44,363 nt of DNA from a virus (IMGVR_UViG_3300017589_000155:1-44363); one strand, 5' to 3'; numbered from the stretch's first letter, positions 1-44,346 are shown. Numbers and translations are program-made. The notes: generated from the letters alone by a model not told the origin.

Positions 1-71
1 ATCAGGATAAGATAATAACAATTTCGGGACGTAATCTGGAAATTATCCAAAAATCTACATTAGAAATAATT

Positions 72-1920: not shown

Positions 1921-4750
1921 AAAAGACAGCATACTTTCAGCAACGGATGGAGGTAAGAACGTAATACTGGATTACTACCCACAGGCATCTGTGGGTTTTT
2001 CCTCCCGAAGAAACTTTAAGCTCCGCTCAGACGACCGTAATCCATCTGCAGCCGTATTCCTGAAAGAGAAAGTTTGGTTCATACAAGACAAAGGGGGCTC
2101 AGACAACAAAGCCTACTCTGCCATTTCATTAGTGATGGAGAATGAAAAGCTTAGTTTCCCTCAGGCACTGGAATTCATAGCTTCGAAATTTGCCCCTCAT
2201 TTGCTTGATGAACGCAAACAGACGATAGGCCCACGGCCACGAATGGAACGAGCAACACCATCAGACAAACTGGTGGTAAAAGTAGCCAAGCGTGAATTAA
2301 CCCAGCGAGAGCTGGACTACCTAGGATACCGGATAAACCAAACCACCTGCGAGGAGCTCTGCCTTAAGCCGGTGGAGTCGTATGTTTCCAGATGCAACGA
2401 CAAAGGGCAGAGCTGGGAATTCTTTCCTACAGAAGAATATCCCATTTACTACTATGATTATGGCAGCTGGGGAAAGATATATCAACCACTGGGAGAACTC
2501 CGTTTCCTGTATGCCGGGGAGAAACCGTCGAACTTCATTTTCGGAGGGCACAAGTTTCTGAGGCTATACGAGGATGCGCGAAAAGGAGATTTTCCCGAGA
2601 TAGATAAAGATACGCAGGTGGACGAGAGATGGGAGCATCTGATACTTTGCTCAGGTCCATCCGATGCGCTCAACGTATCTGCAGCAGGATATCATGTTTG
2701 CTGGTTGAACTCCGAATCGGCAACCCTAACTCAGTACGACTACTCCCTACTCACTAGACTGGCAAAGAACCTTTATATATGTTACGATATAGACAGTACA
2801 GGAATAAATAAAATGTACGATTTGGCTCTGCAATACCTCGACTTGAAAATACTAATCCTCCCGGAGAGTCTGGGAAAGATTAGGACCCGGGGAGGGAAGT
2901 TCTGCAAGGATGCGAAAGACTTTTTTGTACACTATAGAAGACCCGACCAGCAGAATCCTCACAAGTTGTTTGAACAACTGGTGAAGCTGTCGTTTTCCCT
3001 TAAATTCTGGGTGGAGAAGAGAGACAGAAAAGGTGATTTTATTGGATACGATATAAACAACGAACAGCTTTACTCATTCTTGGCAGCGTGCGGATTCTGG
3101 AAGATTGAAACCAGCACCAACAAAAAAGAATTTACATACTGTTTCATAAAGGATAATGTAGTAAAGCTGATAAGTGAAGAGAAGATATCTGCAGCATGTT
3201 CGGCATACCTCATTGAGTACCTACGAGAGCATCCCGAGTACTACTCGCAAATGCTTGTCAATGCCATCCATCGAAGTAACCAGATAAAAATAGGCTCACT
3301 GGACAAGCTCAGAACGATATCTCCGAACTTCAAGTCATACGACAAGTATTCAGATACCATCTTTTTCAGGAACGCGACAGTAAGGATATCTAAAGAGGAT
3401 ATCGAAGCTCTAAAGCCAGGGAGCACGGACTTTTTTGTATATGATCATAAGATAATAGACCATGACTTTACTATGCTGGAGCCACTCTTCGAAATAGAAT
3501 ACACCGAAGAGTATGCAACTCTTATGAACTTATACAAAGCGAGCGACCTGCCGCTGAACTCTCCCGAGAGAGCAGCTCTAAAGAAGAAACTGGACACCAT
3601 TCCCGATACAGCAAGATATAACCTCTCCATCCGTGATACACACTTCTCATTCCTGCGCTACATATACAACACCGGAAGAGCTTACTGGAGGAAAGAAGAA
3701 CTGGGACACTCCCTGTCTGCAGAAGAGAAAAAAGAAGTAGAACTCCATTTCATAAACAAAGTGTGCGCTCTGGGATATCAGATATTTAAGTACAAAGAGG
3801 CCGGACTGGCATATGGGATTTATGCAATGGAACTGGAGTCATCCGATGTGGGAACACACCTAGGAGGAACAGGCAAGTCATTATTCATTTCCTCGATAGA
3901 ACAGGTGAGAAAGCAGCTGTTCATTAACGGACAGGACCTGAACATGAATGATGCACAATTTCTATTCTCGGGAGTAGAACGAGGGGTAACTGACCATGTA
4001 TTTTTTGACGACTTAAACGAGTTCATAGACTTGCATAGGTTCATGCCTATGATAACAGGAAAAATGTCAGTAAACGCCAAATATCAGAATGCATTCACAC
4101 TAGATTTCAGCGACTCCCCACGAGTAGCATTTACCTCCAACCACGGGATAAAGAACTTTGATGCCTCACTTCGCCGGAGGACATGGTTCACTGCGTTCAG
4201 CTCCTATTACCACCCCGACGACCCAATGCGAGGGCTGAAAGAACGCTCACCATTTACAGAGTTCGGGAAGAACTTGATAAGTGACTACACCACCGCTGAA
4301 ATGAACCAGTTCTACAACTTCATGCTGCAATGCCTGCAGACGTTCCTGCAATTCCGGGAGAGGATACAGCCACCGATGGGACAGATAGAGAAACGAAACA
4401 TCCAGCGAGCAATCGGAGATGAATTTATATGGTGGGCCGAAGACTACTTCAATGCGGATCGACTGAATGTTTTGATAAATAAACACACGGCATTCGAGGC
4501 ATACAAGGCAACATTGAACGAGAAGACTGCGAAGATGATTAAGATAAACACCTTCAAGAACCGACTCATTCAATTTTGCCAATACAACGACTGGATATTC
4601 AATCCCCAGGGGATGCTGACATCCGAATCCGAGAAAGAAAGAAACGAGATACGAAGGAAAGAGAACGGAGAGGATGCATACTTCTATTTTATATCCACAT
4701 ACCCAGCAGGGAAGAAAAATGTAGATGATTACGATGATTTACCTCTATAG
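1907..4750 (+). CDS. DNA primase-helicase fusion (TOPRIM plus P-loop helicase)
   Basis: Primase-like N-terminus, TOPRIM-like LCSGPSDAL, CYDIDSTG and KDAKD, Walker A GGTGKS, Walker B FFDD, FTSN motif. Confidence 0.85.
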   Translation: MARIEKDSILSATDGGKNVILDYYPQASVGFSSRRNFKLRSDDRNPSAAVFLKEKVWFIQDKGGSDNKAYSAISLVMENEKLSFPQALEFIASKFAPHLLDERKQTIGPRPRMERATPSDKLVVKVAKRELTQRELDYLGYRINQTTCEELCLKPVESYVSRCNDKGQSWEFFPTEEYPIYYYDYGSWGKIYQPLGELRFLYAGEKPSNFIFGGHKFLRLYEDARKGDFPEIDKDTQVDERWEHLILCSGPSDALNVSAAGYHVCWLNSESATLTQYDYSLLTRLAKNLYICYDIDSTGINKMYDLALQYLDLKILILPESLGKIRTRGGKFCKDAKDFFVHYRRPDQQNPHKLFEQLVKLSFSLKFWVEKRDRKGDFIGYDINNEQLYSFLAACGFWKIETSTNKKEFTYCFIKDNVVKLISEEKISAACSAYLIEYLREHPEYYSQMLVNAIHRSNQIKIGSLDKLRTISPNFKSYDKYSDTIFFRNATVRISKEDIEALKPGSTDFFVYDHKIIDHDFTMLEPLFEIEYTEEYATLMNLYKASDLPLNSPERAALKKKLDTIPDTARYNLSIRDTHFSFLRYIYNTGRAYWRKEELGHSLSAEEKKEVELHFINKVCALGYQIFKYKEAGLAYGIYAMELESSDVGTHLGGTGKSLFISSIEQVRKQLFINGQDLNMNDAQFLFSGVERGVTDHVFFDDLNEFIDLHRFMPMITGKMSVNAKYQNAFTLDFSDSPRVAFTSNHGIKNFDASLRRRTWFTAFSSYYHPDDPMRGLKERSPFTEFGKNLISDYTTAEMNQFYNFMLQCLQTFLQFRERIQPPMGQIEKRNIQRAIGDEFIWWAEDYFNADRLNVLINKHTAFEAYKATLNEKTAKMIKINTFKNRLIQFCQYNDWIFNPQGMLTSESEKERNEIRRKENGEDAYFYFISTYPAGKKNVDDYDDLPL

Positions 4751-5788: not shown

Positions 5789-6226
5789 ATGAAGCTTGGA
5801 ATAAAGAAAATTGAGACCATTTCTGCATCAAAAATCAAGAACTGCGGATACCTGCCCCGAAACGCCACCATCAACCTTTTGCCATTTGTCACCGGCCCTT
5901 TCTCTGAATTACAATTCTCACAGGGGACTGCTTCCCTAGAGGAGGAATGGCTGGAGAGCCCTGCAGGATTATACAGCCAAGTAACACTCAACGGTTCTGT
6001 GAGGGTAAAGGTGAAAGAGATGGAGCCTATTCTATCGGGGCTGATGGTAAGTGAAAACATATACAGAGTGACAACCATGGAGAATGAAAAACTGATAATT
6101 GGAAGCTTGGACTTCATGCCAAAGATGATTTACAAAAGAGCGATATCCGGAATAACATCCTCAGAACTGCTCTTCACAATAACTTGCAAATCACCGCACG
6201 GAGTAATGCGAGAGGCTGCTGTATAG
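5789..6226 (+). CDS. Hypothetical phage protein, possibly structural
   Basis: 145 aa, beta-rich, upstream of the head genes. Confidence 0.7.
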   Translation: MKLGIKKIETISASKIKNCGYLPRNATINLLPFVTGPFSELQFSQGTASLEEEWLESPAGLYSQVTLNGSVRVKVKEMEPILSGLMVSENIYRVTTMENEKLIIGSLDFMPKMIYKRAISGITSSELLFTITCKSPHGVMREAAV

Positions 6227-9898: not shown

Positions 9899-10363
9899 AT
9901 GGGAACTGATAAAATTACAATACCCTCAATACATATCGGTAAGATTGACTCATGGTCAATACTTGATGCGATGATGCAAAGAGCCAAAGAGCCATGCTCT
10001 GTGGTGATATGCTCATTTGCAATTGCCGAGGGCTGGATAAAAAGACTTTGGAAGCTCAAGGAAAAAGGGAGGATTAAAAAGATTACGGTAGTGCTGGACA
10101 GGGCTGTGATGATTCGTCACCGCTCGAAGATAATATTCATGGAGAGTGTAATCGATGAGATATACTTAAATGATACACACGCAAAGTTACTACTGGTTGA
10201 GAGCGCGGACTTCACAGCAGTTGCAGTAATGAGTGCAAACGCGACAATGAACTACCGAATAGAGGCCTTTTTCGTGACTGACAAGGCTGAATACATAAAT
10301 ACAATAAAGGAAGACTTACAACGGATATATGACAACTCAAAATCAGTTAAATCAAATCCTTGA
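9899..10363 (+). CDS. Phospholipase D (HKD)-like nuclease-fold protein
   Basis: ITVVLD...THAKLLLVE...MSANAT...IE matches the HxK...SxN..E PLD/Nuc pattern. Confidence 0.65.
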   Translation: MGTDKITIPSIHIGKIDSWSILDAMMQRAKEPCSVVICSFAIAEGWIKRLWKLKEKGRIKKITVVLDRAVMIRHRSKIIFMESVIDEIYLNDTHAKLLLVESADFTAVAVMSANATMNYRIEAFFVTDKAEYINTIKEDLQRIYDNSKSVKSNP

Positions 10364-10604
10364 ACTGGCAGGGTTATTCTTTACGCTGGAAGAGATATCC
10401 CTCCTGGTGGAAATAGATATATCAGAGCTTCGCCGAGAGGTAAACTTTGGCCATTCAGAAATGCACGACTATTACTGGAAAGGGAAACTGTCTGCCGTTA
10501 AAGCATTAAGGATTTCAACAAAAGAGTTCGCGGAGAAAGGCTCACCACAGGCAGAAGCTCAGATGATAGAGCACCTGAAACTAATGAACGAATCAGAAAA
10601 ATAA
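10329..10604 (+). CDS. Small HTH-like packaging-module protein
   Basis: 91 aa with FTLEEISLLVEIDISEL; upstream of the terminase genes. Confidence 0.55.
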   Translation: MTTQNQLNQILELAGLFFTLEEISLLVEIDISELRREVNFGHSEMHDYYWKGKLSAVKALRISTKEFAEKGSPQAEAQMIEHLKLMNESEK

Positions 10605-10609
10605 ATCAG

Positions 10610-11191
10610 ATGGCACGCCCCGACTCTTTAGAATTAATCACTCAGGCTCTCTTCGATGTAGAAAAGAAGAAAGCACTCTCAGGCTCTGACATTCAGCTGC
10701 TGGAGAGGGTCCGCGATGTTTACACCTTTTGGTTGGAAAAGCCAACACTCACAGATACCAATATCAGGGACTACCTGATGGTGAACTTCGCTGTTTCAAA
10801 AAGTCAGGCCTACAATGATATTGCAATGATAAAGGCAGTACTCGGGAGCGTTCCAACGGCTACAAAAGAGTTTTACAGGTACAAGGCAAATCATATCCTT
10901 GATCAGGCTCATGCCGCGGCAATGTCCGGCAATGATAACAAAGCCAAAGCTCTCACCAAGATAGCCGAAGCAATAGCCTATAACAACAGGACAAATGAAG
11001 ATGATGGAGAGAAGCTCCCATTCAACGAGATAGTTCCGAAAGACCTATCATTCACACTTGACCCTAGTGCCGCAGGCATTAAACCGGTTCCGGGGTTGCG
11101 TGAGAAATCGAAAAAGCTTTTCGATAAGTACAAAGATGAGATTGAACTAGACACAACAGCTTATGTCGAATTTGAAGAAGATATACTTTAA
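10610..11191 (+). CDS. Putative terminase small subunit
   Basis: HTH-like VSKSQAYNDI; overlaps the start of the large subunit. Confidence 0.55.
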   Translation: MARPDSLELITQALFDVEKKKALSGSDIQLLERVRDVYTFWLEKPTLTDTNIRDYLMVNFAVSKSQAYNDIAMIKAVLGSVPTATKEFYRYKANHILDQAHAAAMSGNDNKAKALTKIAEAIAYNNRTNEDDGEKLPFNEIVPKDLSFTLDPSAAGIKPVPGLREKSKKLFDKYKDEIELDTTAYVEFEEDIL

Positions 11192-12776
11192 CAGGGCACA
11201 ACAGGAAGCCATGTTGGTCGGGGCCAATACTGAAGTGGACATCTGGGGAAGAAGGACAGGGAAATCTCACGGGATAATAGCTCCCCGGCTGGTTCGTAAT
11301 GTGCAGATGATGCCCGGAAGTACAGGGGCTTTTGTTTCAGCAACCTTTAAGCAGGCGCACATGAGAACGCTCCCTGCAATGCTAATGGGATTATCCGAGA
11401 TGGGATACAAAAGAGATGTTCACTTTGTCATAGGGAAACGACCACCAAAGAAACTGGGCTTTTTGAGGCCTCTGGTGGAGCCGAATAACTTCGACGATGT
11501 TGTGTCGTGGTACAACGGATCGATTCAGGTAATCATCTCTCAGGACGTGAAGATGTCATCCAACTCGATGACGCTCGACTATGTGATAGGTGACGAGGCA
11601 AAGGGGCTGAACTTCGATAAACTCAAAGATGAAACATTCCCTGCTAATGGAGGGACACGGCGGTACTTTGGTGACTGTCCATGGCACCACGGTTACGTGT
11701 TCGTTTCAGATATGCCAGTCACAAAGTCCGGAAAGTGGCTCCTCAATTATCGGGAGAAAATGGACCCGGAAATAATTGAAACGATAAAAGGGTTAATGAG
11801 TGAATGGCACAGGCTCCAGACCCTGCCGGATTCAGAGTATAAGGCAAGGACAATCCGGGAAACAGAAAAGTACATTGCACAGTTGCGTTCGATAGCTGTA
11901 TATTATAGCGAATGCTCCACATTTGAGAATGTTGATATAGTGGGGCTGTCATACCTCAGGCAACAGAAAAGAGATTTGCCTCCCCTAATCTTTCAAACCT
12001 CCATAATGTCAAAGAGGGTTGAAAGGCTTAAAGATGGGTTTTACCCGAATTTCAATGACAAGGTTCATACATACATTGCCAATAACAATAAACCACTTAT
12101 CAATAACCTATACAAGTTCGACAATGAAATGGACTATGGGTGCCTGCTCGATGCAGACCTAGATACCAAGTCACCAATAACCGGGGCTTTCGATTACAAC
12201 TCAAATATAAACTGGCTGGTGGTAGGTCAGAGGGATGGATTAAAGTTCAAGGTTCTAAAGTCCTTTTATGTGAAGTACACAAGGAAACTAAGAGAGTTAA
12301 TTGATGACTTCTGTCACTATTACAGGCACCACCAGACGCGTGAGTTTGTTTACTATTACGACAATACTGCCCTAGGTTCAAATTACGCTGTCAATAACGA
12401 TGACTTTGCCTCGGTTATATGTGATCAGCTGGTCAAAAACGGATGGAAAGTGACAAAGATGCATATCGGGAATCCAATGAAGCATCACGAGAAGTTCAAC
12501 ATCCTGAATGAATGTTTCACAGGGGCAAAACACTTGCTGCCTATTCTCAACAGAGAGAACAACGAAGCATTGATAATATCAATATCCCTGGCAGAAGTTG
12601 TAATATCCTCAAGAGGATTTCAGAAGTTCAAAGGTGGGGAGAAGTTAGCAGAGAGTGAGGACGACCCACTCGAATACCGAACAGATGGTTCAGACGCTTT
12701 CGATACATTAGTGTTGGGGAACTGCCTGTATCCTTACAGAACCGGAGGGTTCGGAATAGGCTCGTCACTCACATAG
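11163..12776 (+). CDS. Terminase large subunit
   Basis: Q motif (RAQQEA), Walker A GRRTGKS, Walker B IGDEA, C-terminal RNase H-like acidic motifs (AFDYN, DGSDAFD). Confidence 0.9.
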   Translation: MSNLKKIYFNRAQQEAMLVGANTEVDIWGRRTGKSHGIIAPRLVRNVQMMPGSTGAFVSATFKQAHMRTLPAMLMGLSEMGYKRDVHFVIGKRPPKKLGFLRPLVEPNNFDDVVSWYNGSIQVIISQDVKMSSNSMTLDYVIGDEAKGLNFDKLKDETFPANGGTRRYFGDCPWHHGYVFVSDMPVTKSGKWLLNYREKMDPEIIETIKGLMSEWHRLQTLPDSEYKARTIRETEKYIAQLRSIAVYYSECSTFENVDIVGLSYLRQQKRDLPPLIFQTSIMSKRVERLKDGFYPNFNDKVHTYIANNNKPLINNLYKFDNEMDYGCLLDADLDTKSPITGAFDYNSNINWLVVGQRDGLKFKVLKSFYVKYTRKLRELIDDFCHYYRHHQTREFVYYYDNTALGSNYAVNNDDFASVICDQLVKNGWKVTKMHIGNPMKHHEKFNILNECFTGAKHLLPILNRENNEALIISISLAEVVISSRGFQKFKGGEKLAESEDDPLEYRTDGSDAFDTLVLGNCLYPYRTGGFGIGSSLT

Positions 12777-19570: not shown

Positions 19571-20242
19571 GTGACGAACGAAACAATAAAAGAAAGACAA
19601 GTAAAATCTAAGAAGAGGGTAACCGATCATGGAGAAGTGTTTACAAACGTTCGTGAAGTAAATGCAATGCTTGACTTAGTGAAGCAAGAAACTGAACGCA
19701 TTGATTCTCGTTTCTTAGAACCAGCCTGTGGTAATGGCAACTTCTTAGCGGAAGTATTGAGAAGAAAATTAACAGTAATTGACAGTCGATACAGCAAAAG
19801 TCAATTGGAATGGGAACGATATACTGTGATTGGTATATCTAGTATATATGGTGTTGATATTTTGGAAGATAACGCCCAAGAATGCAGAGAAAGGCTTTAT
19901 AAAATCTTTGATGAAATATATTCTTCATTGTTTAAAGACAATTGTAAAAAAGAATGTCGCAGAAGTATTAAATTTATTCTGAACAGAAATATTCTTTGGG
20001 GAGACGCCTTAGATTTTACAAATCCCAAAACAAAAGCACCAATAGTTTTTTCAGAATGGGGCGCTGTAAACGGAAGTTTGCTCAAACGAAGAGATTACAT
20101 ATTTAAATTTTTGGTTGAAAAAACACACCAGTTTTCTCTATTTAATGACGAAGGAAACGCAGCTGCCATTGATGAACCAGTAAAGGATTTCCCACTTATT
20201 CATTTCTTAAAACTTGGCGATGATGATACAAACGAACTATAA
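19571..20242 (+). CDS. Short N6-adenine methyltransferase-like subunit (SAM-binding half)
   Basis: GEVFT, FLEPACGNGNFL, IYGVDI, NILWGDAL; no NPPY motif. Confidence 0.75.
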   Translation: MTNETIKERQVKSKKRVTDHGEVFTNVREVNAMLDLVKQETERIDSRFLEPACGNGNFLAEVLRRKLTVIDSRYSKSQLEWERYTVIGISSIYGVDILEDNAQECRERLYKIFDEIYSSLFKDNCKKECRRSIKFILNRNILWGDALDFTNPKTKAPIVFSEWGAVNGSLLKRRDYIFKFLVEKTHQFSLFNDEGNAAAIDEPVKDFPLIHFLKLGDDDTNEL

Positions 20243-21788
20243 CCCTGATGTACTTTCTTGTCTTGCCAACCTTAGCAATGACGAAGTTTTTACACCTCCC
20301 AGTTTAGTAAATGACATTTTGGATTTGCTCCCAGCCAGACTTTGGGTCAACCCGAATTCAAAATTTTTGGATCCTGTTTCTAAAAGCGGTGTCTTCCTCC
20401 GTGAAATGGCAAAGAGATTAATGAAAGGTCTGGAATCTAGGATTCCTGATAAACAGGAGCGCATCAATCACATTTTCACCCAACAGCTTTATGGAATTGC
20501 TATAACAGAGTTGACATCCTTACTTTCTCGCAGAAGCGTATACTGTTCCAAAACGGCCAATGGCAAATACTCCGTTTGCGAATCCTTCGACAATGAGCAA
20601 GGGAATATCCGATACGAGCGAATGAAACACACCTGGAAAAACGGAAAGTGTACTTACTGCGGAGCAAGTCAGTATGTATATGACCGAGAAGATACCTTAG
20701 AAACATACGCTTACAATTTTATTCACACAGAAAAACCGTACAACATATTCAATATGAAATTTGACGTTATAGTCGGAAATCCACCTTATCAATTGAGTGA
20801 TGGAAGTGGAGGAAGCAGCGATAGTGCTATTCCTGTATATAATAAATTCATTGAACAGGCAATCAACCTTAATCCGAAATATTTGGTGATGATTACGCCA
20901 TCAAAGTGGATGTTTGGCGGAAGAGGTTTACAGAAATTCCGCGAAAAGATGGTTTTGGACAAAAGGATAAAATCAATTTATGACTTTGAAAATGCATCGG
21001 ATTGTTTTCCTGGATTACATATTGATGGAGGGGTGAGCTATTTTCTATGGGAGAAAGATTATTCTGGTATGACAGAATACTACTTCAAAGCTAATAACGG
21101 GTCCTTCAATAAATCTTTTCGTTACCTAAAAAACAACTATTTCGAATATGTTATTAGAGATAATAGGGCAATTTCAATAATTGAAAAGGTATTAAATGGC
21201 AAAAGTTTTTCCGAAATTGTATCTCTAACAAGACCTTACGGAATAAGAAACTATTTATTTAACGAACCGCAAAGATATCCAGATTCTAATTTACAATTTG
21301 AACCCTTTAATAATAGTTTAAAAGTTTTTGGTGTAAAGGGTATCAAAGGAGGAGCAAGAAGAATAGTAGGTTATATTTCTCCAACTATTGCGACGAACAA
21401 CCTAGAATCAATTAATAAATACAAAATATTTTTCACAACGAGTTATTCCACTAATGCAATAAATCCCCCAGAGATAATACTGGGTGAACCAGGCTCAATA
21501 TGCACTGAAACATTCTTATTAATTGGCCCTTTTAACAGTGAAAATGAACAATATAATTGTCGAACATATATAGAAACAGATTTTTTTAAAGTGCTTTTGT
21601 ATTTGGGTAAGGGAACCATGCACGTTACAAAGAGTGTTTTTGGGCTTATTCCTATACAAGACTTTACTGAATCATGGACTGACGTAAAGTTATACGAAAA
21701 ATACGGCTTAACGAAAGCGGAAATTGCGTTTATTGAAAATATGATTCGCCCAATGGATATAAATTATAAAGACAAAAATGACATTTAA
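20220..21788 (+). CDS. Eco57I-like amino-DNA methyltransferase with target recognition domain
   Basis: DEVFTP, degenerate motif I (FLDPVSKSG), FDVIVGNPPY, MITPSKW, C-terminal TRD-like region. ATG at 20220 or 20223 preferred over the track's TTG at 20214. Confidence 0.85.
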   Translation: MMIQTNYNPDVLSCLANLSNDEVFTPPSLVNDILDLLPARLWVNPNSKFLDPVSKSGVFLREMAKRLMKGLESRIPDKQERINHIFTQQLYGIAITELTSLLSRRSVYCSKTANGKYSVCESFDNEQGNIRYERMKHTWKNGKCTYCGASQYVYDREDTLETYAYNFIHTEKPYNIFNMKFDVIVGNPPYQLSDGSGGSSDSAIPVYNKFIEQAINLNPKYLVMITPSKWMFGGRGLQKFREKMVLDKRIKSIYDFENASDCFPGLHIDGGVSYFLWEKDYSGMTEYYFKANNGSFNKSFRYLKNNYFEYVIRDNRAISIIEKVLNGKSFSEIVSLTRPYGIRNYLFNEPQRYPDSNLQFEPFNNSLKVFGVKGIKGGARRIVGYISPTIATNNLESINKYKIFFTTSYSTNAINPPEIILGEPGSICTETFLLIGPFNSENEQYNCRTYIETDFFKVLLYLGKGTMHVTKSVFGLIPIQDFTESWTDVKLYEKYGLTKAEIAFIENMIRPMDINYKDKNDI

Positions 21789-21790
21789 AT

Positions 21791-22372
21791 TTGAATCCCT
21801 CAAGACAAATATCAAATATGTGGTGCATTAGTCGGTATAAGAATGACAATAACAAAATTGTAGAAGAAATACAATATCAATTTTATAGTTATTGTAATTC
21901 AACAATTTTTGATTTGATAAAAATATCTGTTTTAGATAAAGAATATTGTAAGTTGTATTTCGATAATATCGAAAGAGAGAATATGCGTGAGATTGATTCG
22001 TGTGATCATCGCTTATTACAAACTTGTCATGATAGTTTAGCTGCTGTTTTTAGATATTATGTTTCAATAGGTAAATACGAAAGTTTAATTTTTGAAATTT
22101 CTAATCAAGAAATTCGAAGTTTCTTTGACAGCATATATGTTGACACAAAATTCCTTGATGTCATAGACGAAAAATATTGGTTTTTAAATAAATATTGGTA
22201 CGACTTTGTTATTGATGAGATAAATAGCAACTATGATATGGTTCGAGAATTAGCAAAAGCAACTTTAATTTACTCAAAGGGAGATGATAATAGAGAATTA
22301 AGATGGAAATCATCCTATAATGCAGCAAATTCTGTTAAGGATAAATATTTTAATGTCCCTTGGTTATTATAA
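21791..22372 (+). CDS. Hypothetical protein within the R-M-like operon
   Basis: 193 aa, very AT-rich; start uncertain (TTG 21791 or ATG 21818). Confidence 0.6.
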   Translation: MNPSRQISNMWCISRYKNDNNKIVEEIQYQFYSYCNSTIFDLIKISVLDKEYCKLYFDNIERENMREIDSCDHRLLQTCHDSLAAVFRYYVSIGKYESLIFEISNQEIRSFFDSIYVDTKFLDVIDEKYWFLNKYWYDFVIDEINSNYDMVRELAKATLIYSKGDDNRELRWKSSYNAANSVKDKYFNVPWLL

Positions 22373-22378
22373 CTAATA

Positions 22379-24883
22379 ATGAACAATAAAGAATTTTTTC
22401 CACCCAGGCCATCTACCAATCCCACCATTTATGCGTATGAATTGGTTGGGGTTACCACGCATTCGGGTTTACTCAAAATTGGCTTTACCGACCGTGATGC
22501 CAAAAGACGTATTAAAGAACAATTGGGCACAGCTGCCATTCAACATAAAATTGTGTTTGAAGAATCGGCAATGAAACGAGACGGCTGTTCCTTTACTGAC
22601 CATGACATACACCGCCACTTGCGCAAAAAAGGTTTTGCCAATCCTGAAGGAGAATGGTTTAAATGCAATCTCAACGATTTACGCAGAGTCATTCACGAAA
22701 TCAAGACAGGTGAGCGTACCGAAGAAAATCGAGTGCTTACATTTGGTATGCGACCCGAGCAGAAAGAAGCCGTTAAAAAATCAATAGACTATTTCAATAG
22801 TTTCAAAAAAGAGAATAATGACAAAACCCCGCACTTTTTGTGGAATGCCAAAATGCGTTTTGGAAAAACTTTTGCCAGTTATCAATTGGCAAAGAAAATG
22901 GGTTGGACAAAAATACTTGTACTCACATTCAAACCAGCCGTGCAATGTGCCTGGGAAGAAGATTTATTGTCCCATGTAGATTTTGAAGGTTGGCAATTTA
23001 TCTCTCGCAACGGCCGTTCGTTTGAAGATGCTAACACTAAAAAGCCTATTGTTTGTTTTGGCTCGTTTCAGGATTATTTGGGAAAAAACGATGTTGGTGG
23101 AATAAAGTCGAGAAATGAGTGGGTTCATGCTACCAATTGGGATTGTGTAATTTTTGATGAATACCATTACGGAGCCTGGCGGGAAAATGCGAAAGAGCTC
23201 TTTGAGGCAGAAAGTAAAAAGGAAATAGAATTCGGAGAAGGCGAGGGTATTGAGTATTTCGATGAAGAAGCAATGCCCATCACTACCAATCACTATTTGT
23301 ATTTATCGGGAACGCCTTTCCGTGCAATCGCTTCTGGAGAGTTCATAGAAGAACAGATTTTCAACTGGACCTACTCGGACGAGCAAAAAGCAAAAGAGAA
23401 TTGGACTGGTGCAAACAATCCTTATGCTGCCTTACCAAGAATGGTTATGCTCACTTATCAATTGCCCGATTCCATCCGGCAAATTGCGATGCAAGGTGAG
23501 TTCGATGGGTTTGATTTGAATGTTTTCTTTTCTGCCGAAGGCGAACAACGTACAGCCCGTTTCAAATACGAAGACGAAGTGCAAAAATGGCTTGACCTGA
23601 TACGGGGTTCATTCAGCGAAACTACCATTGACAACTTGAAAATGGGGGCAAAGAAACCACCGTTACCGTTTTCACACGCTCCATTATTGAAAGTTCTGAA
23701 CCACACTTTTTGGTTTTTACCAACGGTTGCGGCTTGTAATGCTATGGCAAATTTGCTCAAGCAACGCCAAAATAAATTCTACCACGATTATACTATAGTA
23801 GTTGCCGCAGGCACACACGCAGGCATTGGAGTTCACGCATTGCCTCCAGTGCAAGATGCTATGACTGATAATCCGTTGGAATCAAAAACGATTACACTTT
23901 CATGTGGCAAACTTACCACAGGGGTTACGGTAAAACCTTGGACAGGCATCTTTATGCTACGTAATTCTTCCAGTCCGGAAACCTATTTTCAGGCTGCTTT
24001 CAGGGTTCAATCTCCCTGGACAATCAAAAACCCGGATAGCAAATCTCCTAACAAAGAAGAAATTTTAAAAGAAGAATGCTATGTTTTCGACTTTGCACCC
24101 GACCGCGCATTGAGACAAATAGCCGATTATAGTTGCCGTCTGAACTTAAACGAATCTAATCCCGAAACAAAAGTTGCTGAATTTATAAACTTCTTGCCTG
24201 TATTGGCTTATGACGGTAGTTCAATGAAACAAGTTGACGCAGCTGGAATCTTGGATATGGCAATGAGCGGAACAACAGCAACACTTTTAGCAAGAAGATG
24301 GGAAAGTGCATTGCTAGTAAATGTTGACAACAACACGCTTGCCCGCTTGATTGCGAATGAAGATGCAATGAAAGCGTTAATGAGTATTGAGGGTTTCAGA
24401 AATTTGAATCAGGATATTGACACGATAATCAACAAATCGGAAGCAGTTAAAAAAGTAAAGAAAGAAGCCAACGAAAGAGAGCTTGACAAGGAAGAAATTA
24501 AAGAACTTTCAAAAGAAGAAAAGGAGTACAAAAGCCTAAGAAAACAAATACAGGATAAGCTTATTAAGTTTGCAACTCGAGTTCCTGTATTTATGTACCT
24601 GACAGACTACAGAGAAAGAAGCCTGAAAGACGTAATTATCCAACTTGAACCGGGACTTTTTAAAAAAGTTACGGGCTTGACTTTAAAAGATTTTGAATTA
24701 TTGGTTAGCCTTGGCGTTTTTAATTCTGCATTAATGAATGATGCTGTGTATAAATTCAAACGCTATGAAGATGCAAGTTTGGAATATGTTGGAGTAAACA
24801 AGCACGAAGGAGAAAATATTGGACTATACGACACTGTTATAAGTCGTAAAGATTATGAAGGAAGTTTTGTAAATGAAGATTAA
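22379..24883 (+). CDS. GIY-YIG (T5orf172-like) nuclease plus SF2 (ResIII-like) helicase
   Basis: IYAY...LKIGFT..R...EWF nuclease; AKMRFGKT, IFDEYH, LSGTP and QAAFRVQ helicase motifs. Confidence 0.85.
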   Translation: MNNKEFFPPRPSTNPTIYAYELVGVTTHSGLLKIGFTDRDAKRRIKEQLGTAAIQHKIVFEESAMKRDGCSFTDHDIHRHLRKKGFANPEGEWFKCNLNDLRRVIHEIKTGERTEENRVLTFGMRPEQKEAVKKSIDYFNSFKKENNDKTPHFLWNAKMRFGKTFASYQLAKKMGWTKILVLTFKPAVQCAWEEDLLSHVDFEGWQFISRNGRSFEDANTKKPIVCFGSFQDYLGKNDVGGIKSRNEWVHATNWDCVIFDEYHYGAWRENAKELFEAESKKEIEFGEGEGIEYFDEEAMPITTNHYLYLSGTPFRAIASGEFIEEQIFNWTYSDEQKAKENWTGANNPYAALPRMVMLTYQLPDSIRQIAMQGEFDGFDLNVFFSAEGEQRTARFKYEDEVQKWLDLIRGSFSETTIDNLKMGAKKPPLPFSHAPLLKVLNHTFWFLPTVAACNAMANLLKQRQNKFYHDYTIVVAAGTHAGIGVHALPPVQDAMTDNPLESKTITLSCGKLTTGVTVKPWTGIFMLRNSSSPETYFQAAFRVQSPWTIKNPDSKSPNKEEILKEECYVFDFAPDRALRQIADYSCRLNLNESNPETKVAEFINFLPVLAYDGSSMKQVDAAGILDMAMSGTTATLLARRWESALLVNVDNNTLARLIANEDAMKALMSIEGFRNLNQDIDTIINKSEAVKKVKKEANERELDKEEIKELSKEEKEYKSLRKQIQDKLIKFATRVPVFMYLTDYRERSLKDVIIQLEPGLFKKVTGLTLKDFELLVSLGVFNSALMNDAVYKFKRYEDASLEYVGVNKHEGENIGLYDTVISRKDYEGSFVNED

Positions 24884-25154
24884 CAAAACCAATACATTTT
24901 AAAGCAAATAGCATATTTCTGCAACCAAAGAGATCTCTTTCTTTGTTTTTTTGTCGTTGTTCTATATTGATAAAATAGCCTTTTATTCAGGGTTCTCGCT
25001 TGCTTGCAACTCTTGTGATTGTTAGTTGACTCATTGCTCTGTTTATCGTCGTTATTGATAATTATTCCGGTGGGGGTGTGAGTTCTGTTCGACTTAATTC
25101 ATTTTCCTCCAGAGTTACTTTTTCAGTGATTTTTAATATAATTCTGGTTTTATC

Positions 25155-25283
25155 AATGCAAAGGTTATCAAATGCCTTGGGCCTTATACAAGGTCGGGCT
25201 GGAGTTTTGGTAACAATCTCCACACTTTCAGGTAGTATTCTTTCAAAAACCTTGTTACGGCTGTCATTTACCTTTTGGGCATT
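25155..25283 (+). promoter_or_regulatory. Long imperfect hairpin element 1, Frpo/ssi-like
   Basis: AATGC/GCATT, AAAGGT/ACCTTT, ACAAGGT/ACCTTGT, TTTTG/CAAAA; core AATCTCCAC-N8-GTAGTATT at 25215-25239. Confidence 0.7.
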
Positions 25284-25322
25284 CGTTAAAACACTTAATT
25301 ATTTAAATCAAAATCAACTATT

Positions 25323-25754
25323 ATGAAAAAGAACTATGTACGCCTGGAAGGAAATGTTGGATTCGACCCAAGAGTAAACACACTGGAAACCGGCTCAACC
25401 GTGATGAGATTATCAATTGCAACAGACGAAAGCTACAAAAACAGAGCTGGAGAATTCGTCAGGGAAACTGTATGGCACAATGTAGTTGCTTGGGAAAGCA
25501 AAACACTCCCCCAGTTCTCCACTATCCATAAAGGAACAGGCCTTATCGTTATCGGGAAAATCAAACCGGTACAATACACAACAAAAACAGGGGTGGAAAG
25601 AAGTACTTACGAGATCGTTGCTTCAGAAATACAATTTACTGCCGACACTACAAACGACATCATTGATGCCCTCAAAGAAATTGAAACTCCTAAAGAAGCT
25701 ACCCTCAAAGAGTACGCTCCAGCAGCTACCAAGAGCAGAAAGAAAGCTAAATAG
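25323..25754 (+). CDS. ssb: Single-stranded DNA-binding protein
   Basis: NYVRLEGNVGFDP...SIATDESY...WHNVVAW...KG..L.V.G.I OB fold; lacks the acidic tail. Confidence 0.92.
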   Translation: MKKNYVRLEGNVGFDPRVNTLETGSTVMRLSIATDESYKNRAGEFVRETVWHNVVAWESKTLPQFSTIHKGTGLIVIGKIKPVQYTTKTGVERSTYEIVASEIQFTADTTNDIIDALKEIETPKEATLKEYAPAATKSRKKAK

Positions 25755-25773
25755 CTCCCACTTTCCCTTAAAG

Positions 25774-25803
25774 AAAGCCGGTCATTGACTGGCTTTTTTT
25801 TTT
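25774..25803 (+). terminator. Intrinsic terminator after ssb
   Basis: AAAGCCGGTCA-t-TGACTGGCTTT plus a long T run. Confidence 0.8.
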
Positions 25804-26034
25804 GTTTATTGGTTACACTAGTTCAGTCTTTATGGATGCTCTTTTTCGTTATTAACCCTGATGGCACTTATTGATTTATTCCGGGATTAAATATCATCTT
25901 CACTGATAGTATTTATAGCATGGGCAATACTTTACATTTCTCTAATCCGGGATGATTGGTTTATATGTATGTGACTGCTATTTGAAACATTTTGTGTTTA
26001 TTTCCATTCGCTTATTCTTTGTTCCTGTTTATAA

Positions 26035-26160
26035 AGGCAAAGGTATTTACGTTCATTACTTTACAACAAGTTCGTGCATAGTTTTATTAACAATCTCCAC
26101 TCTTGCAGGTAGTATTCTTACTAAAAAACTGGTTTCATTATTCTCTACCCTTTGATGCCT
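26035..26160 (+). promoter_or_regulatory. Long imperfect hairpin element 2, Frpo/ssi-like
   Basis: AGGC/GCCT, CAAAG/CTTTG, GGTA/TACC, TTTTA/TAAAA; core at 26092-26116. Confidence 0.7.
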
Positions 26161-26185
26161 ATATAAATCATTAACAATAAGCATC

Positions 26186-26365
26186 ATGAAAACAACAATG
26201 TACAAAATCGAACTTTCAAAAAGAGAAGCAGTTATCTACACAATGACAACCAAAGGAGCTATCCTAGCTGAGAAATACGTTTCAGTAAATGAAGCCCAAA
26301 GGTTCGCTAGAATGAATGGCCTATCAGTTATGGAAGATGATGGAGAATTGAAATCTTACTGGTAA
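26186..26365 (+). CDS. Small hypothetical protein (59 aa), absent from the ORF track
   Basis: MKTTMYKIELSKREAVIYTMTTKGAILAEKYVSVNEAQRFARMNGLSVMEDDGELKSYW*; same position relative to the hairpin as ssb and radC. Confidence 0.75.
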   Translation: MKTTMYKIELSKREAVIYTMTTKGAILAEKYVSVNEAQRFARMNGLSVMEDDGELKSYW

Positions 26366-26383
26366 ATCAATACAAAGAGACTG

Positions 26384-26403
26384 CCCTGATATCAGGGTTT
26401 TTT
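26384..26403 (+). terminator. Intrinsic terminator
   Basis: CCCTGATATCAGGG palindrome followed by TTTTTT. Confidence 0.65.
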
Positions 26404-26560
26404 CTTACTCAAAGTATAATTGCTGACTAGTTGATTCGTTGTTGTTCGTGATTGGCTTATTCTCTTATTAAAAGTTACTGAAAATCTCTTCGGTTATATT
26501 GAAGTTCGGACTCATTGATTTTGGCCTTCCGGTAGTTGAATTTCACTTTCATATTGTTTT

Positions 26561-26704
26561 GTGAATTGTTGGCAAAGGTGGTTCGCTCACATGTCGATTG
26601 TAGCAAGAACAGGCTTTGTTTACAGGATAATCTCCACTTCTGCGAGTAGTATTTTCCTTTAAATTCTTGCATATCGGTTCACTCTCTCCCGGCCACAAAT
26701 TCAC
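26561..26704 (+). promoter_or_regulatory. Long imperfect hairpin element 3, Frpo/ssi-like
   Basis: GTGAATT/AATTCAC, CGAT/ATCG, GCAAGAA/TTCTTGC, TTTA/TAAA, AGGA/TCCT; core at 26629-26653. Confidence 0.7.
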
Positions 26705-26719
26705 TTAAAACAATCTATC

Positions 26720-27331
26720 ATGAAAGCCTTAAAAGAAATTCAAACAATCTACCATCAGTCGGGAGTAAAATCATTAGATGATAAAGACCTCCTTCACCTT
26801 CTTGGAGTCAACCTTGAAGAATGCAATTTTCTAGAACTATTTAATTCAACCCACGAATCACTTCTGAGAAAAGGGGTCACCCCGGGAGCTGCTTTAAAAA
26901 TACGTGCACTATCGGAGGTGGCTCATAGATACTCAACAACTCCTATACAGGAACTTCCTTCCATATCATCTTCAAGCTCCGCGGCTAAAATTATTTCTCC
27001 CTTCCTTAAACATCTTCCCCACGAGGAGTGCTGGGTGTTATACCTAAACAGGGGAAACAAGCTAATTTCAAAAGAGCGGCTCTCAGTTGGTGGCGTTACT
27101 GCAACTGTCGTTGACATTAAGCTCATAATGAAGAGAGCTCTTGAACTTCTAGCTTGTAGTATAATTTTAGTGCATAACCACCCATCTGGGAACAACAAGC
27201 CCGGAGAGAATGATAGAACACAAACAAAGTTGCTGAAGGATGCCGCAAATTTCTTTGATATCAATCTCCTTGACCACTTAATTATAGCCGGCGATAGCTT
27301 CTTTAGCTTTGCAGATGATGGTATAATCTAA
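26720..27331 (+). CDS. radC: RadC-family JAB-domain protein
   Basis: HEECWVLYLN...GG...T.VD...ILVHNHPSG...D...LLDHLII...FFSFAD. Confidence 0.92.
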   Translation: MKALKEIQTIYHQSGVKSLDDKDLLHLLGVNLEECNFLELFNSTHESLLRKGVTPGAALKIRALSEVAHRYSTTPIQELPSISSSSSAAKIISPFLKHLPHEECWVLYLNRGNKLISKERLSVGGVTATVVDIKLIMKRALELLACSIILVHNHPSGNNKPGENDRTQTKLLKDAANFFDINLLDHLIIAGDSFFSFADDGII

Positions 27332-27346
27332 GACTCAAATGCAATT

Positions 27347-27375
27347 AAAGAGTCCTCTTGCGAGGGCTCTTTTTT
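27347..27375 (+). terminator. Intrinsic terminator after radC
   Basis: AAAGAGTCCTC-ttgc-GAGGGCTCTTT plus a T run. Confidence 0.8.
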
Positions 27376-27424: not shown

Positions 27425-27649
27425 ATGATACATTCCAGTAAGATACATGAGCTTGTTGAAGTTCACCCGTTTTTCTCAATAGGATGGATAACCAGTAGCG
27501 GTGAGAAAATCTTTATCCGCAAGTGCAAGTGCACGAGCTTCCACTCATCGGGGGACACCCTTAACATAATGATATTCGAAAGTGGGGAGATACGCAAAGT
27601 AAACAGGTACACAATAACAGAGTTTAACGGCCAAGAGGTGATTTTATGA
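27425..27649 (+). CDS. Hypothetical phage protein (74 aa)
   Basis: ATG at 27425 preferred over TTG at 27374; coupled to the portal gene. Confidence 0.7.
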   Translation: MIHSSKIHELVEVHPFFSIGWITSSGEKIFIRKCKCTSFHSSGDTLNIMIFESGEIRKVNRYTITEFNGQEVIL

Positions 27650-28980
27650 TTGAGATAATTAATGGTATAACGTACCTGCCGGAGATAAAGGCAGTGATTA
27701 GCGCAAAACCCAGTGCTAACTTTTTCAAAGATGAAAATCTGGAGCCAATCACCATTGACAAAATGGTGATTGCACCCTGGGGTGCAAAGAACAACCTCCC
27801 TCAGGAAATCCTTGATATGGTTGAAGTATCTGATGTGCTGGGTGCAAACCTAAGGTTCAACAGGGATGTGTGCTATGGACTGGGACCGAAACTGGTTAAG
27901 GTATTGAAGGACAAAAGCGGAAAGGTAGTGGACTACTGTGATGTTGAAAGTGGAAAAGAGTATGACTTCTTTGAGAGAAACGATATACCAATGTTCCTGC
28001 TGGAACAGCTGACGGATATGGTTAATTTCCACAACGCTTTTCCTGAACTGATACCTTCAGAATCAAAGAATGAAATATTCTCACTCCGCTCTAAAGAAGC
28101 CGCTTTCTCGAGGTGGTCAGTGATGAACAAATTTGGCGGAATAGATAATCACTACTACTCGGCCAAATGGCACGACTCCCCGGGAAAGAATGATATTATA
28201 GCCTCTCGTGTCATTGACGAGTTCAACGCACTGGCAGATGTGACAGCTAAGATTGCACTCAAAAAGAGCAGGCTGATTTATCCTGTTTATATGCCATCAC
28301 CCAGTAGGCCATATTATTCACGCCCTGAATGGTACTCACTGTTCGAATCAGGCTGGTATGATCACTCTGTGGCCATCCCGGCACTCAAGAAAGCTATTTT
28401 GAAAAATAACTTGGGTGTGAAGTTCATAATCTACATCTCTGATGAATATTTTCAGGACATATTCCAAAAGGAAGGTATTGACCTTCACGATAGGAAAGCT
28501 GTAAAAGATAGAATCGATAAAGAGAAAGCAGCATTTAATGAGTTCCTCTCCGGGGCAGACAACGCATCCAAGGCCATAATGGCAATAAAGAAGTTTGTCC
28601 CTTCAGGCAGTGGCGCTGTGGAAAACAAGTGGATTGAAATCGAACCAATCAAAAACGATTTAACCGGGGGAGAGTACATCCCTGACTTGGAAACCGTAAC
28701 CAGTATAATGTGCTACGCCACCGGAGTACATCCATCCCTGATTGGGGCCGTTCCGGGAAAGAATTCAGGTTCAATGTCCGGGACAGACAAGAGAGAGCTC
28801 TATCTGATGAAACAGGCTCTGATGAAACCTCTTGTGGATAGAACGCTCCGTCCGCTAAAGCTGATAAAGATGTACAATAAATGGGATGACGATATCTCCA
28901 TCATTGTGCCTGAGTACATATTTACAACGCTCGATAAAGCAAAGTCAGGGAAAGAGGAATCAACAACAAAACAAATTTAA
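27646..28980 (+). CDS. Portal protein
   Basis: 444 aa with PWGAKNNLP, YYSRPEW and GVHPSLIGA...SG motifs typical of portals. Confidence 0.75.
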   Translation: MIEIINGITYLPEIKAVISAKPSANFFKDENLEPITIDKMVIAPWGAKNNLPQEILDMVEVSDVLGANLRFNRDVCYGLGPKLVKVLKDKSGKVVDYCDVESGKEYDFFERNDIPMFLLEQLTDMVNFHNAFPELIPSESKNEIFSLRSKEAAFSRWSVMNKFGGIDNHYYSAKWHDSPGKNDIIASRVIDEFNALADVTAKIALKKSRLIYPVYMPSPSRPYYSRPEWYSLFESGWYDHSVAIPALKKAILKNNLGVKFIIYISDEYFQDIFQKEGIDLHDRKAVKDRIDKEKAAFNEFLSGADNASKAIMAIKKFVPSGSGAVENKWIEIEPIKNDLTGGEYIPDLETVTSIMCYATGVHPSLIGAVPGKNSGSMSGTDKRELYLMKQALMKPLVDRTLRPLKLIKMYNKWDDDISIIVPEYIFTTLDKAKSGKEESTTKQI

Positions 28981-38725: not shown

Positions 38726-40000
38726 ATGACAAAACAGATCCTTGGTAAAATAGCTATCACTCCTAAAGGAGAGTATAATCCTGTCACGCTTTATGAAAGA
38801 TTAGATGCCGTCACATTTAATGGTGCTGGTTTTATTGCCAAAATACCATCGCAGGGTGTACTTCCTACAAACACAAACAACTGGACAAAGTATGTGGAAA
38901 AAGGTGACACTGGACCACAAGGAACACCCGGCGACAAAGGATTAAAAGGAGATACAGGACTGCAGGGTGCAATTGGGCCACAGGGTCAGCAAGGTTTAAA
39001 AGGAGAAACCGGAATTCAAGGTATTCAGGGAATAAAAGGAGATACAGGAGCAACTGGAGCGCAAGGGTTTCAAGGAGAGAGAGGGCATGTTGGAGTACAG
39101 GGACCAGAGGGGCCACAAGGATTAATGGGTATTGGAGAAATGGGACCAATGGGCCAACAAGGATTAACCGGGGCTATGGGTAAAAGCGCGTATCAGGTTT
39201 GGTTAGACCTAGGGAATAGCGGAACAATGGTTACTTATTTAGAATCGCTAAAAGGCTTAAAGGGAGATACGGGAGCACAAGGAATTCAAGGCGTACAAGG
39301 AGTAAAGGGAGATACGGGATTAACAGGAGCACAAGGTATTCAGGGAATAAAAGGAGATACTGGAGATAGAGGGCTCCAAGGAATCCAAGGAGAAAGAGGG
39401 TACACAGGACTTGAGGGACCGGAGGGACCACAGGGTTTAATGGGTATCGGAGAAATGGGACCAATGGGCCAACAGGGTGCAACCGGGGAAATGGGTAAAA
39501 GCGCGTATCAGGTTTGGTTAGACCTTGGGAATAGCGGAACAATGGTTACTTATTTAGCATCACTAAAAGGCTTAAAGGGAGATACCGGAGCTCAGGGTGG
39601 TCAAGGTGTACAGGGCATAAAAGGAGATACAGGATTAACCGGAGCACAAGGTATTCAGGGAATAAAGGGAGATACTGGAGCGACAGGAGCACAAGGAGGA
39701 CAGGGAGTAAAAGGAGATACCGGAGCCACTGGAGCTGCATCAACAGTTGCCGGGCCACAAGGGATACAAGGGCCTCAGGGAATAAAGGGAAATACCGGAG
39801 CCACCGGAGCGCAAGGTGCACAAGGGCCAATTGGTAACACCGGAGCAACAGGCTCTCAAGGCGCACAAGGGCCAATTGGTAACACTGGAGCGACTGGTTC
39901 GCAAGGCGTACAAGGACCTGCAATTCCTCTTTGGACAGGCTCCCAAGCCTCTTATAATTCGATTTTAAAAGATGCTAACACGTTGTATTTTATTGTTTAA
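38726..40000 (+). CDS. Collagen-like tail fibre protein
   Basis: Long Gly-X-Y runs with two GKSAYQVW interruptions; 315-bp internal duplication. Confidence 0.88.
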   Translation: MTKQILGKIAITPKGEYNPVTLYERLDAVTFNGAGFIAKIPSQGVLPTNTNNWTKYVEKGDTGPQGTPGDKGLKGDTGLQGAIGPQGQQGLKGETGIQGIQGIKGDTGATGAQGFQGERGHVGVQGPEGPQGLMGIGEMGPMGQQGLTGAMGKSAYQVWLDLGNSGTMVTYLESLKGLKGDTGAQGIQGVQGVKGDTGLTGAQGIQGIKGDTGDRGLQGIQGERGYTGLEGPEGPQGLMGIGEMGPMGQQGATGEMGKSAYQVWLDLGNSGTMVTYLASLKGLKGDTGAQGGQGVQGIKGDTGLTGAQGIQGIKGDTGATGAQGGQGVKGDTGATGAASTVAGPQGIQGPQGIKGNTGATGAQGAQGPIGNTGATGSQGAQGPIGNTGATGSQGVQGPAIPLWTGSQASYNSILKDANTLYFIV

Positions 40001-44228: not shown

Positions 44229-44269
44229 AAAGACCGTAAATGCCTGTGTTATTTGCATTTACGGTCTTT
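44229..44269. terminator. Phage-supplied hairpin after the reconstituted tRNA
   Basis: Perfect 15-bp stem AAAGACCGTAAATGC/GCATTTACGGTCTTT. Confidence 0.7.
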
Positions 44270-44273
44270 TTAG

Positions 44274-44346
<73 letters not shown>

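Follow-up and report, generated by a model that had tools for sequence, protein, structure and literature searches.

Hairpins ahead of establishment genes in Bacteroidota mobile elements and a tailed prophage: probable fold-back promoters resembling Frpo

As the closest described counterparts of the elements reported here, the Frpo/ssi hairpins belong to conjugative plasmids of enterobacteria. In Frpo of the F plasmid, the folded single strand rebuilds the promoter boxes and drives ssb early, and second-strand synthesis switches the promoter off (PMC9849209, PMC12672017, 10.64898/2026.01.09.698686). According to the accessible parts of the literature cited here, single-strand promoters have been tested only for enterobacterial plasmids, and no case from Bacteroidota or from a phage was found there ('Bacteroid' is absent from the main text of PMC11541004); the supplements of PMC2864571 and PMC11541004 could hold the motif, and subscription literature lies largely outside this coverage. 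Here we analyse IMGVR_UViG_3300017589_000155:1-44363, a stretch of viral DNA of 44,363 nucleotides (the window, meaning always the whole stretch), in which three long imperfect hairpins stand in a row, each followed by one gene: ssb, an open reading frame (ORF) for 59 amino acids, and radC. By examining the relatives of these hairpins, their strand, their fold and their gene neighbourhoods, we propose that the units are probably fold-back promoters, which would let host RNA polymerase transcribe the gene that follows only as long as the minus strand exists as a single strand. They are best read as working like Frpo, outside the known Frpo classes.

Judged by sequence, the three units are members of a hairpin family that extends across Bacteroidota. 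Roughly 350 viral and 1,300 genome stretches contain the exact apex pattern (both figures are estimates, and some matches are due to chance). Among the matches listed, 77 genome loci provide the genome context counts given below (65 named as Bacteroidota, 10 from other phyla and 2 unnamed), and the viral counts derive from 80 loci with flanks. The 255 apex matches with full flanks were reduced to 118 non-redundant sequences, and a strict filter for arm pairing, which 55 failed (including units 2 and 3 of the window), left 63. A sequence profile, used in place of a covariance model and built from 61 sequences with the window copies excluded, confirms 96 of the 118; the 22 that it does not confirm lie mostly inside ORFs. 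No decoy fell below E 0.96 in the profile search, which recovers exactly three units in the window (E 1e-17, 6e-14 and 1e-11), and the exact apex occurs three times in the window against none in 100 shuffles. Of 72 confirmed members that allow the test, 70 lie between genes, and where a locus holds additional copies, these share one strand in 20 of 21 loci, some overlapping contigs being counted among these loci. The original prediction called the apex invariant, which is true within the window; in the family it varies. A query made of the far-arm boxes only recovered the core AATC(T/A)(C/T)C...GTATT in 24 of 54 non-redundant matches (0.05 expected), so the core is a part of the element, although a variable one; the exact apex appeared in 8 of the 54, neither core nor exact apex in 30, and apex spacing among members ranges from 7 to more than 25 nt. 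The hairpins have no match in Rfam 15, either at the gathering cut-off or at E-value level, blastn of the module against annotated phages returned chance fragments only, and a profile search of the phages BT-TP2, phage018a and 6H found no copy.

Pairing within the family is maintained by changes on both sides of the stem. Such two-sided changes affect 14 of the 22 predicted pairs across 61 minus-strand sequences, with a score beyond that of all 500 shuffles and of the slid controls, which lie far lower; this is an upper view, the sequences having mostly been selected for arm pairing and the structure having been derived from the same alignment, and both circumstances temper the case for a fold. 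The minus strand folds to the lower energy in 54 of 63 members as DNA and in 58 of 63 as RNA, a gap to which the query apex itself contributes, and on the plus strand A-C oppositions outnumber G-T by 70 to 39. At the tip, whose sequence is unconstrained in the apex query, a GNA triloop occurs on the minus strand in 53 of 96 members (shuffles: mean 15.4, maximum 30) and in all three window copies, against 1 of 96 on the plus strand; seen from the other side, 53 of the 70 doubly closed triloops are GNA on the minus strand. Among all 64 triloops, GNA alone was reported to form DNA mini-hairpins, and its RNA counterpart is far less stable (PMC13037366). Taken with this DNA-type loop stability, the tip pattern points to DNA folded on the minus strand. 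Thirty of the 53 minus-strand GNA tips read UNCG on the plus strand, and the other 23, as well as the window's three, do not.

Promoters of Bacteroidota follow a -33/-7 consensus in which the -7 box is TAnnTTTG (PMC7366714). This box was absent from the search pattern, and in perfect form it occupies the far arm, the one away from the gene, in 40 of the 63 pairing-selected members and the gene-side arm in one (background 2.2%). The perfect combination TTG-17..23-TAnnTTTG is likewise found in the far arm of 50 of the 96 profile-confirmed members and in the gene-side arm of none (background 1%). Pairing, evaluated in 32 members, is 0.88-0.91 for the -33 box and 0.47 and 0.35 for the TA of the -7 box. 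By geometry, the gene-side arm would serve as template on folding, with the far arm as its non-template partner, and with the -33 box paired and the TA of the -7 box half open, the primary sigma factor could start toward the gene; in duplex DNA the gene-facing copy would be dead. The same transcript may also prime the second strand, as that of Frpo does, and such priming would explain the copies found beside mob genes of small plasmids.

What weighs against the fold-back promoter in these data is that the far-arm boxes are, in duplex DNA, a good promoter pointing away from the gene. Their real output might be a leftward RNA, antisense or small, that crosses the T-rich spacer, with the hairpin tuning or silencing it; the consensus quality of the duplex promoter agrees with this, as do terminator-like sites on the minus strand to the left of units 2 and 3 (25742-25759 and 26384-26397). 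We regard this ordinary promoter as unlikely, since it leaves unexplained the pairing of the gene-side arm with the -33 box, the GNA tip and the fixed classes of downstream gene, and the context upstream of the units varies (integrase, terminase or rep).

In conjugative elements, the gene neighbourhoods and their strand fit a single-strand promoter and primer site of the Frpo kind. A protein panel matched 32 of the 77 genome loci; tra genes always lie downstream on the opposite strand (DUF3872 in 7 of 7, TraO in 6 of 6, TraN in 5 of 5), and ArdA (3), JAB (6), PcfK (4) and PcfJ (4) always lie downstream on the same strand, with one unit before JAB and another before ardA in a Bacteroides ovatus element. 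Except in L248 and L191, the mob genes share the apex-forward strand (9 of 11 cases, among them conjugative transposons and small plasmids), so that the folding strand there is the mob non-coding strand; a profile from five mobA-upstream regions matched four more loci in the same orientation. Because the relaxase gene is typically in the lagging region (PMC11541004), the folding strand would, if this holds here too, be the transferred strand. Of six mob-upstream regions, one carries an RP4-type nick motif on the expected strand and one on the opposite strand. The original interpretation is supported in part: arm asymmetry, covariation, GNA loops and strand relative to mob and tra genes lend good support to its fold-back logic, the support being comparative throughout.

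Several individual loci merit description. A Bacteroides ovatus plasmid (L256) holds four units on one strand within 6 kb (20320-26075), where the neighbours are small hypothetical genes and, close by, an N6 methylase, and at L128 a unit (5824-5847) lies directly 5' of a 1724-aa ORF that by eye resembles a methyltransferase-helicase. Plasmids of 2.7-4.9 kb from Empedobacter, Elizabethkingia and Marivirga carry single units directly before mob genes (L245 726-828, L246 1051-1153, L254 4615-4731), and these are candidate single-strand origins.

This placement, together with units preceding mobA without an intervening gene, raises the question of whether the units serve mainly as priming sites or roadblocks for second-strand synthesis, expression being secondary; Frpo-type transcripts are reported to prime, and ssp2 to stall synthesis (10.64898/2026.01.09.698686). 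We consider such a mainly priming role quite unlikely: each window copy heads one gene and is closed off by a terminator, copies are gained and lost with their gene, and a single origin would suffice.

In the window, the parts of the three fold-back promoter candidates lie where the original prediction placed them, with GCAAAGGT at 25158, 26037 and 26572, CAAG at 25189, 26067 and 26604 and the apex at 25215, 26092 and 26629. The layout of each unit (a T-rich spacer, with 44-47% T against 27% window-wide, then hairpin, one gene and terminator) is also confirmed for ssb, the 59-aa ORF and radC (Table 1). A promoter close to the -33/-7 consensus had been read on the minus strand; the boxes are there, but the -7 box is perfect in unit 2 only. 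As for the hairpins themselves, the three units are real and the sole copies in the prophage, but near the earlier bounds their fold is weak (minus-strand DNA z of -2.7, -0.1 and -1.6), and with wider bounds, chosen afterwards, z becomes -4.0, -2.1 and -3.0. The 59-aa ORF has five close homologues and a best atlas match of 0.82 to an unnamed entry; no Pfam or PHROG match and no distant homologue were found for it.

Table 1. Features of the three-unit array and of the genes that border its cargo slot, in window coordinates
Feature	Position	Strand	Basis or remark
Terminase large subunit	11163..12776	+	left border of cargo slot; tblastn to annotated terminases
Unit 1 hairpin	25127..25316 (core 25151-25290)	- (folding strand)	profile match, boxes, folding
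Unit 1 -7-like box AACCTTTG	25159..25166	-	one mismatch to TAnnTTTG
Unit 1 -33-like box CTTG	25189..25192	-	22 nt before -7 box
Unit 1 apex	25215..25239	-	T(GAA)A triloop
ssb, single-strand binding protein, 143 aa	25323..25754	+	PF00436, E 1e-20
Terminator-like hairpin 3' of ssb	25770..25800	+	
Unit 2 hairpin	26005..26188 (core 26032-26165)	-	weakest fold among the three
Unit 2 -7 box TACCTTTG	26038..26045	-	perfect TAnnTTTG
Unit 2 -33-like box CTTG	26067..26070	-	21 nt before -7 box
Unit 2 apex	26092..26116	-	T(GCA)A triloop
59-aa orphan ORF	26186..26365	+	kept in three related phages
Terminator-like hairpin 3' of 59-aa ORF	26383..26398	+	
Unit 3 hairpin	26555..26714	-	profile match, boxes, folding
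Unit 3 -7-like box CACCTTTG	26573..26580	-	one mismatch to TAnnTTTG
Unit 3 -33-like box CTTG	26604..26607	-	23 nt before -7 box
Unit 3 apex	26629..26653	-	C(GCA)G triloop
radC, RadC-like JAB domain, 203 aa	26720..27331	+	PF04002, E 5e-38
Terminator-like hairpin 3' of radC	27347..27372	+	
Portal-like gene	27646..28980	+	right border of cargo slot; named by gene order in BT-TP2 and phage018a

The position of the units, nearly always intergenic and 5' of genes (70/72), would equally suit a leader RNA on the plus strand or a duplex operator through which a repressor controls a promoter in the spacer, as in the regulons of the pLS20 family. Establishment genes under repressor control have been described (PMC8708921), the plus-strand reading of the tip is UNCG in 30 of 96 members, and the conserved apex core is non-canonical. 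This explanation seems to us improbable, and the RNA alternative named in the original prediction is disfavoured: Rfam has no match, the three window spacers lack a perfect forward -7 box, and the window tips are all GNA on the minus strand and none UNCG on the plus. The variable apex spacing (7 to >25 nt) is moreover unlike a dimer operator, and the reverse promoter would be left unexplained.

The 44-kb window is a tailed phage integrated as a prophage, with genes for a tape measure, a protease and a tail fibre, an integrase at its right end and a tRNA-Met at 44273-44346; the attachment sites are marked by a 15-nt direct repeat of the tRNA-Met end (227-241 and 44269-44283). Its terminase resembles those of Bacteroidota phages, one of them from a member of the Duneviridae. 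Two phages deposited with Microcystis as host are among the best named terminase matches (35%), a label that may be doubtful because the other listed terminase hosts are Bacteroidota. The three-hairpin array forms the end of a cargo block between the terminase and the portal-like gene, for which no family match was found. A restriction-modification-like block in the same slot (19571-24883) adjoins unit 1 on its upstream side and comprises a methyltransferase stub, an Eco57I-type methyltransferase, a 193-aa ORF and a T5orf172-helicase; elsewhere in the window, a tail-fibre-like gene at 38726-40000 has long collagen repeats.

Related phages bear out a link between unit and gene. All three units stand in unchanged order in L249; units 2 and 3 occur in L260, and unit 2 together with an apex-less unit 3 in L261. 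The apex-less unit of L261 (3480-3620, before radC) keeps the arm boxes and has lost the apex, making it a natural apex-less variant. In the other 17 of 20 related loci, several of them too short to cover the slot, units are absent. Units are gained or lost together with their gene, and order is constant in L249, L260 and L261. Among viral loci generally, radC lies downstream on the same strand in 21 layouts and ArdA follows a unit in two phage modules. Behind the hairpin and ahead of radC, the L001 module encodes a protein with an ArdC N-terminal domain (3447-3839, E 4e-7) and the L181 module one with a weak phosphoribosyltransferase match (10214-10771, E 0.006). The module is resident across many phages of the lineage, and its suggested capture from an integrative and conjugative element would be at most ancient or repeated.

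Could the phage units be inert leftovers from such elements? The phage has no known single-stranded stage, the -7 box is imperfect in two of the three units, and units are absent from the relatives L262 and L250 and from three isolated phages of similar layout. Yet boxes, pairing and gene order are kept in relatives whose radC is just 58-68% identical, and 23 distinct viral layouts carry units in that cargo slot, so that we consider inert leftovers highly improbable. Hardly credible at all is a gene-cassette array in which the units would be recombination sites of the attC kind, an alternative for which one may cite repeated hairpin-gene units that come and go and one strand that folds better. 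The stems of attC sites end in RYYYAAC / GTTRRRY boxes and no such R-box pair is present on either strand here, order is unchanged in the three relatives, no integrase is present besides that of the phage, which lies at the tRNA, and the hairpin precedes its gene and carries a promoter.

Several observations count against the units as fold-back promoters. In the window, the first T of the -7 box is missing in units 1 and 3, a base kept in 95% of the members whose box has at most one mismatch, and with the wider bounds the plus strand folds about equally well. Neither a relaxase nor an oriT-like site was found in the window, and no single-stranded stage is therefore known for this phage; the relaxase family PF03432 has no match in five virus records (three rated complete), and its matches in four host genomes are not tied to prophages. 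The unit is 3' of the terminase on the same strand in 20 distinct viral layouts and inverted in 3, and because of these inversions in 3 of 23 layouts a fixed displaced strand cannot be required (the module is inverted between terminase and portal in L015, L028, L032 and L066). In three transposons the hairpin is 17-29 kb from the mob region, and the nick strand of these transposons is not given in the accessible text of PMC5729914 and PMC3809561. RNA runs for a homologue in a gut phage consist of contigs that carry neither strand nor start information, and three isolate runs compared with it do not reach the hairpin.

In the prophage, the promoter would fire when phage DNA is briefly single-stranded, a state that we would place in the phage's own replication or in resection after cutting, and a burst of SSB, RadC and the 59-aa protein might follow in a cell that the phage has just entered or in which it has been induced; these are the least certain steps of the scheme. 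RadC itself has been given a role in nucleic-acid processing as a hypothesis (PMC5512222). Other conceivable triggers are N4-like extrusion and entry on a conjugated chromosome segment, large conjugative chromosome transfers being documented (PMC5729914). More broadly, and tentatively, temperate tailed phages of Bacteroidota might use fold-back promoters to sense their own single-stranded or unwound DNA, whether from resection, from replication or from SSB-aided extrusion beginning at the GNA tip, with a self-limiting pulse of SSB, RadC and anti-restriction proteins as the result and a host factor binding the apex core. A family of this kind throughout Bacteroidota would account for the expression of anti-restriction genes by newly arrived conjugative transposons of the gut and for the priming of their second strand, and the hairpin would become a sequence tag for establishment genes, the 59-aa orphan being one candidate; the same device in tailed phages would imply an unrecognised single-stranded or extruded stage.

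Comparison with known systems places the units nearest to Frpo. Integron attC sites are likewise repeated hairpins between single genes; the units differ from them in having a promoter and in lacking R boxes, reordering and an integron integrase. The radC and STAXI motifs (RF01754 and RF01728) are structured and lie near radC or near ssb, anti-restriction or integrase genes (PMC2864571), but they are proteobacterial, and the units have no Rfam match. EGeRS1 and EGeRS2 of the pLS20-family plasmids are also repeated and head small establishment operons; EGeRS1, however, is 400-600 bp long, contains no promoter within its fold and sits on the transferred strand, which is there the non-template one, and EGeRS2, unlike the units, is repressor-based (PMC8708921). 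With the early promoters of phage N4 the units share a hairpin promoter in a double-stranded phage, a link to SSB and, on the template strand, a loop of 3 nt that includes a sheared G:A pair (PMC4496689). The N4 hairpins are short, extruded by supercoiling and read by a virion polymerase (PMC4496689), whereas the units are 160-190 nt long and mismatched and carry host sigma boxes; no polymerase was found among the 41 window ORFs scanned.

With Frpo/ssi, the units have in common a long imperfect hairpin 5' of ssb or anti-restriction genes, promoter boxes rebuilt in the fold without a gene-facing duplex promoter, and several copies on one strand; if the orientation of the mob genes is a guide, the template may likewise be the transferred strand. 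The downstream establishment genes also agree (ssb and radC here; ArdA, JAB and the ArdC N-terminal domain in relatives). Membership in Frpo/ssi classes 1-3 was considered and fails on sequence, given the -33/-7 boxes, a sigma-70 scan no better than chance (6 against 7.3) and the lack of an enterobacterial plasmid match for unit 1; no likeness in sequence to Frpo was seen, a direct alignment with it not having been made. The units depart from Frpo in their boxes, which are of the Bacteroidota -33/-7 and not of the -35/-10 type, in their conserved, GNA-tipped apex core, in a distance of 17-29 kb to the mob region of CTnDOT-type elements, and in residing in tailed prophages as well. The fold-back trick is known from E. 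coli plasmids, and these comparisons point to its likely use in Bacteroidota, a double-stranded phage included.

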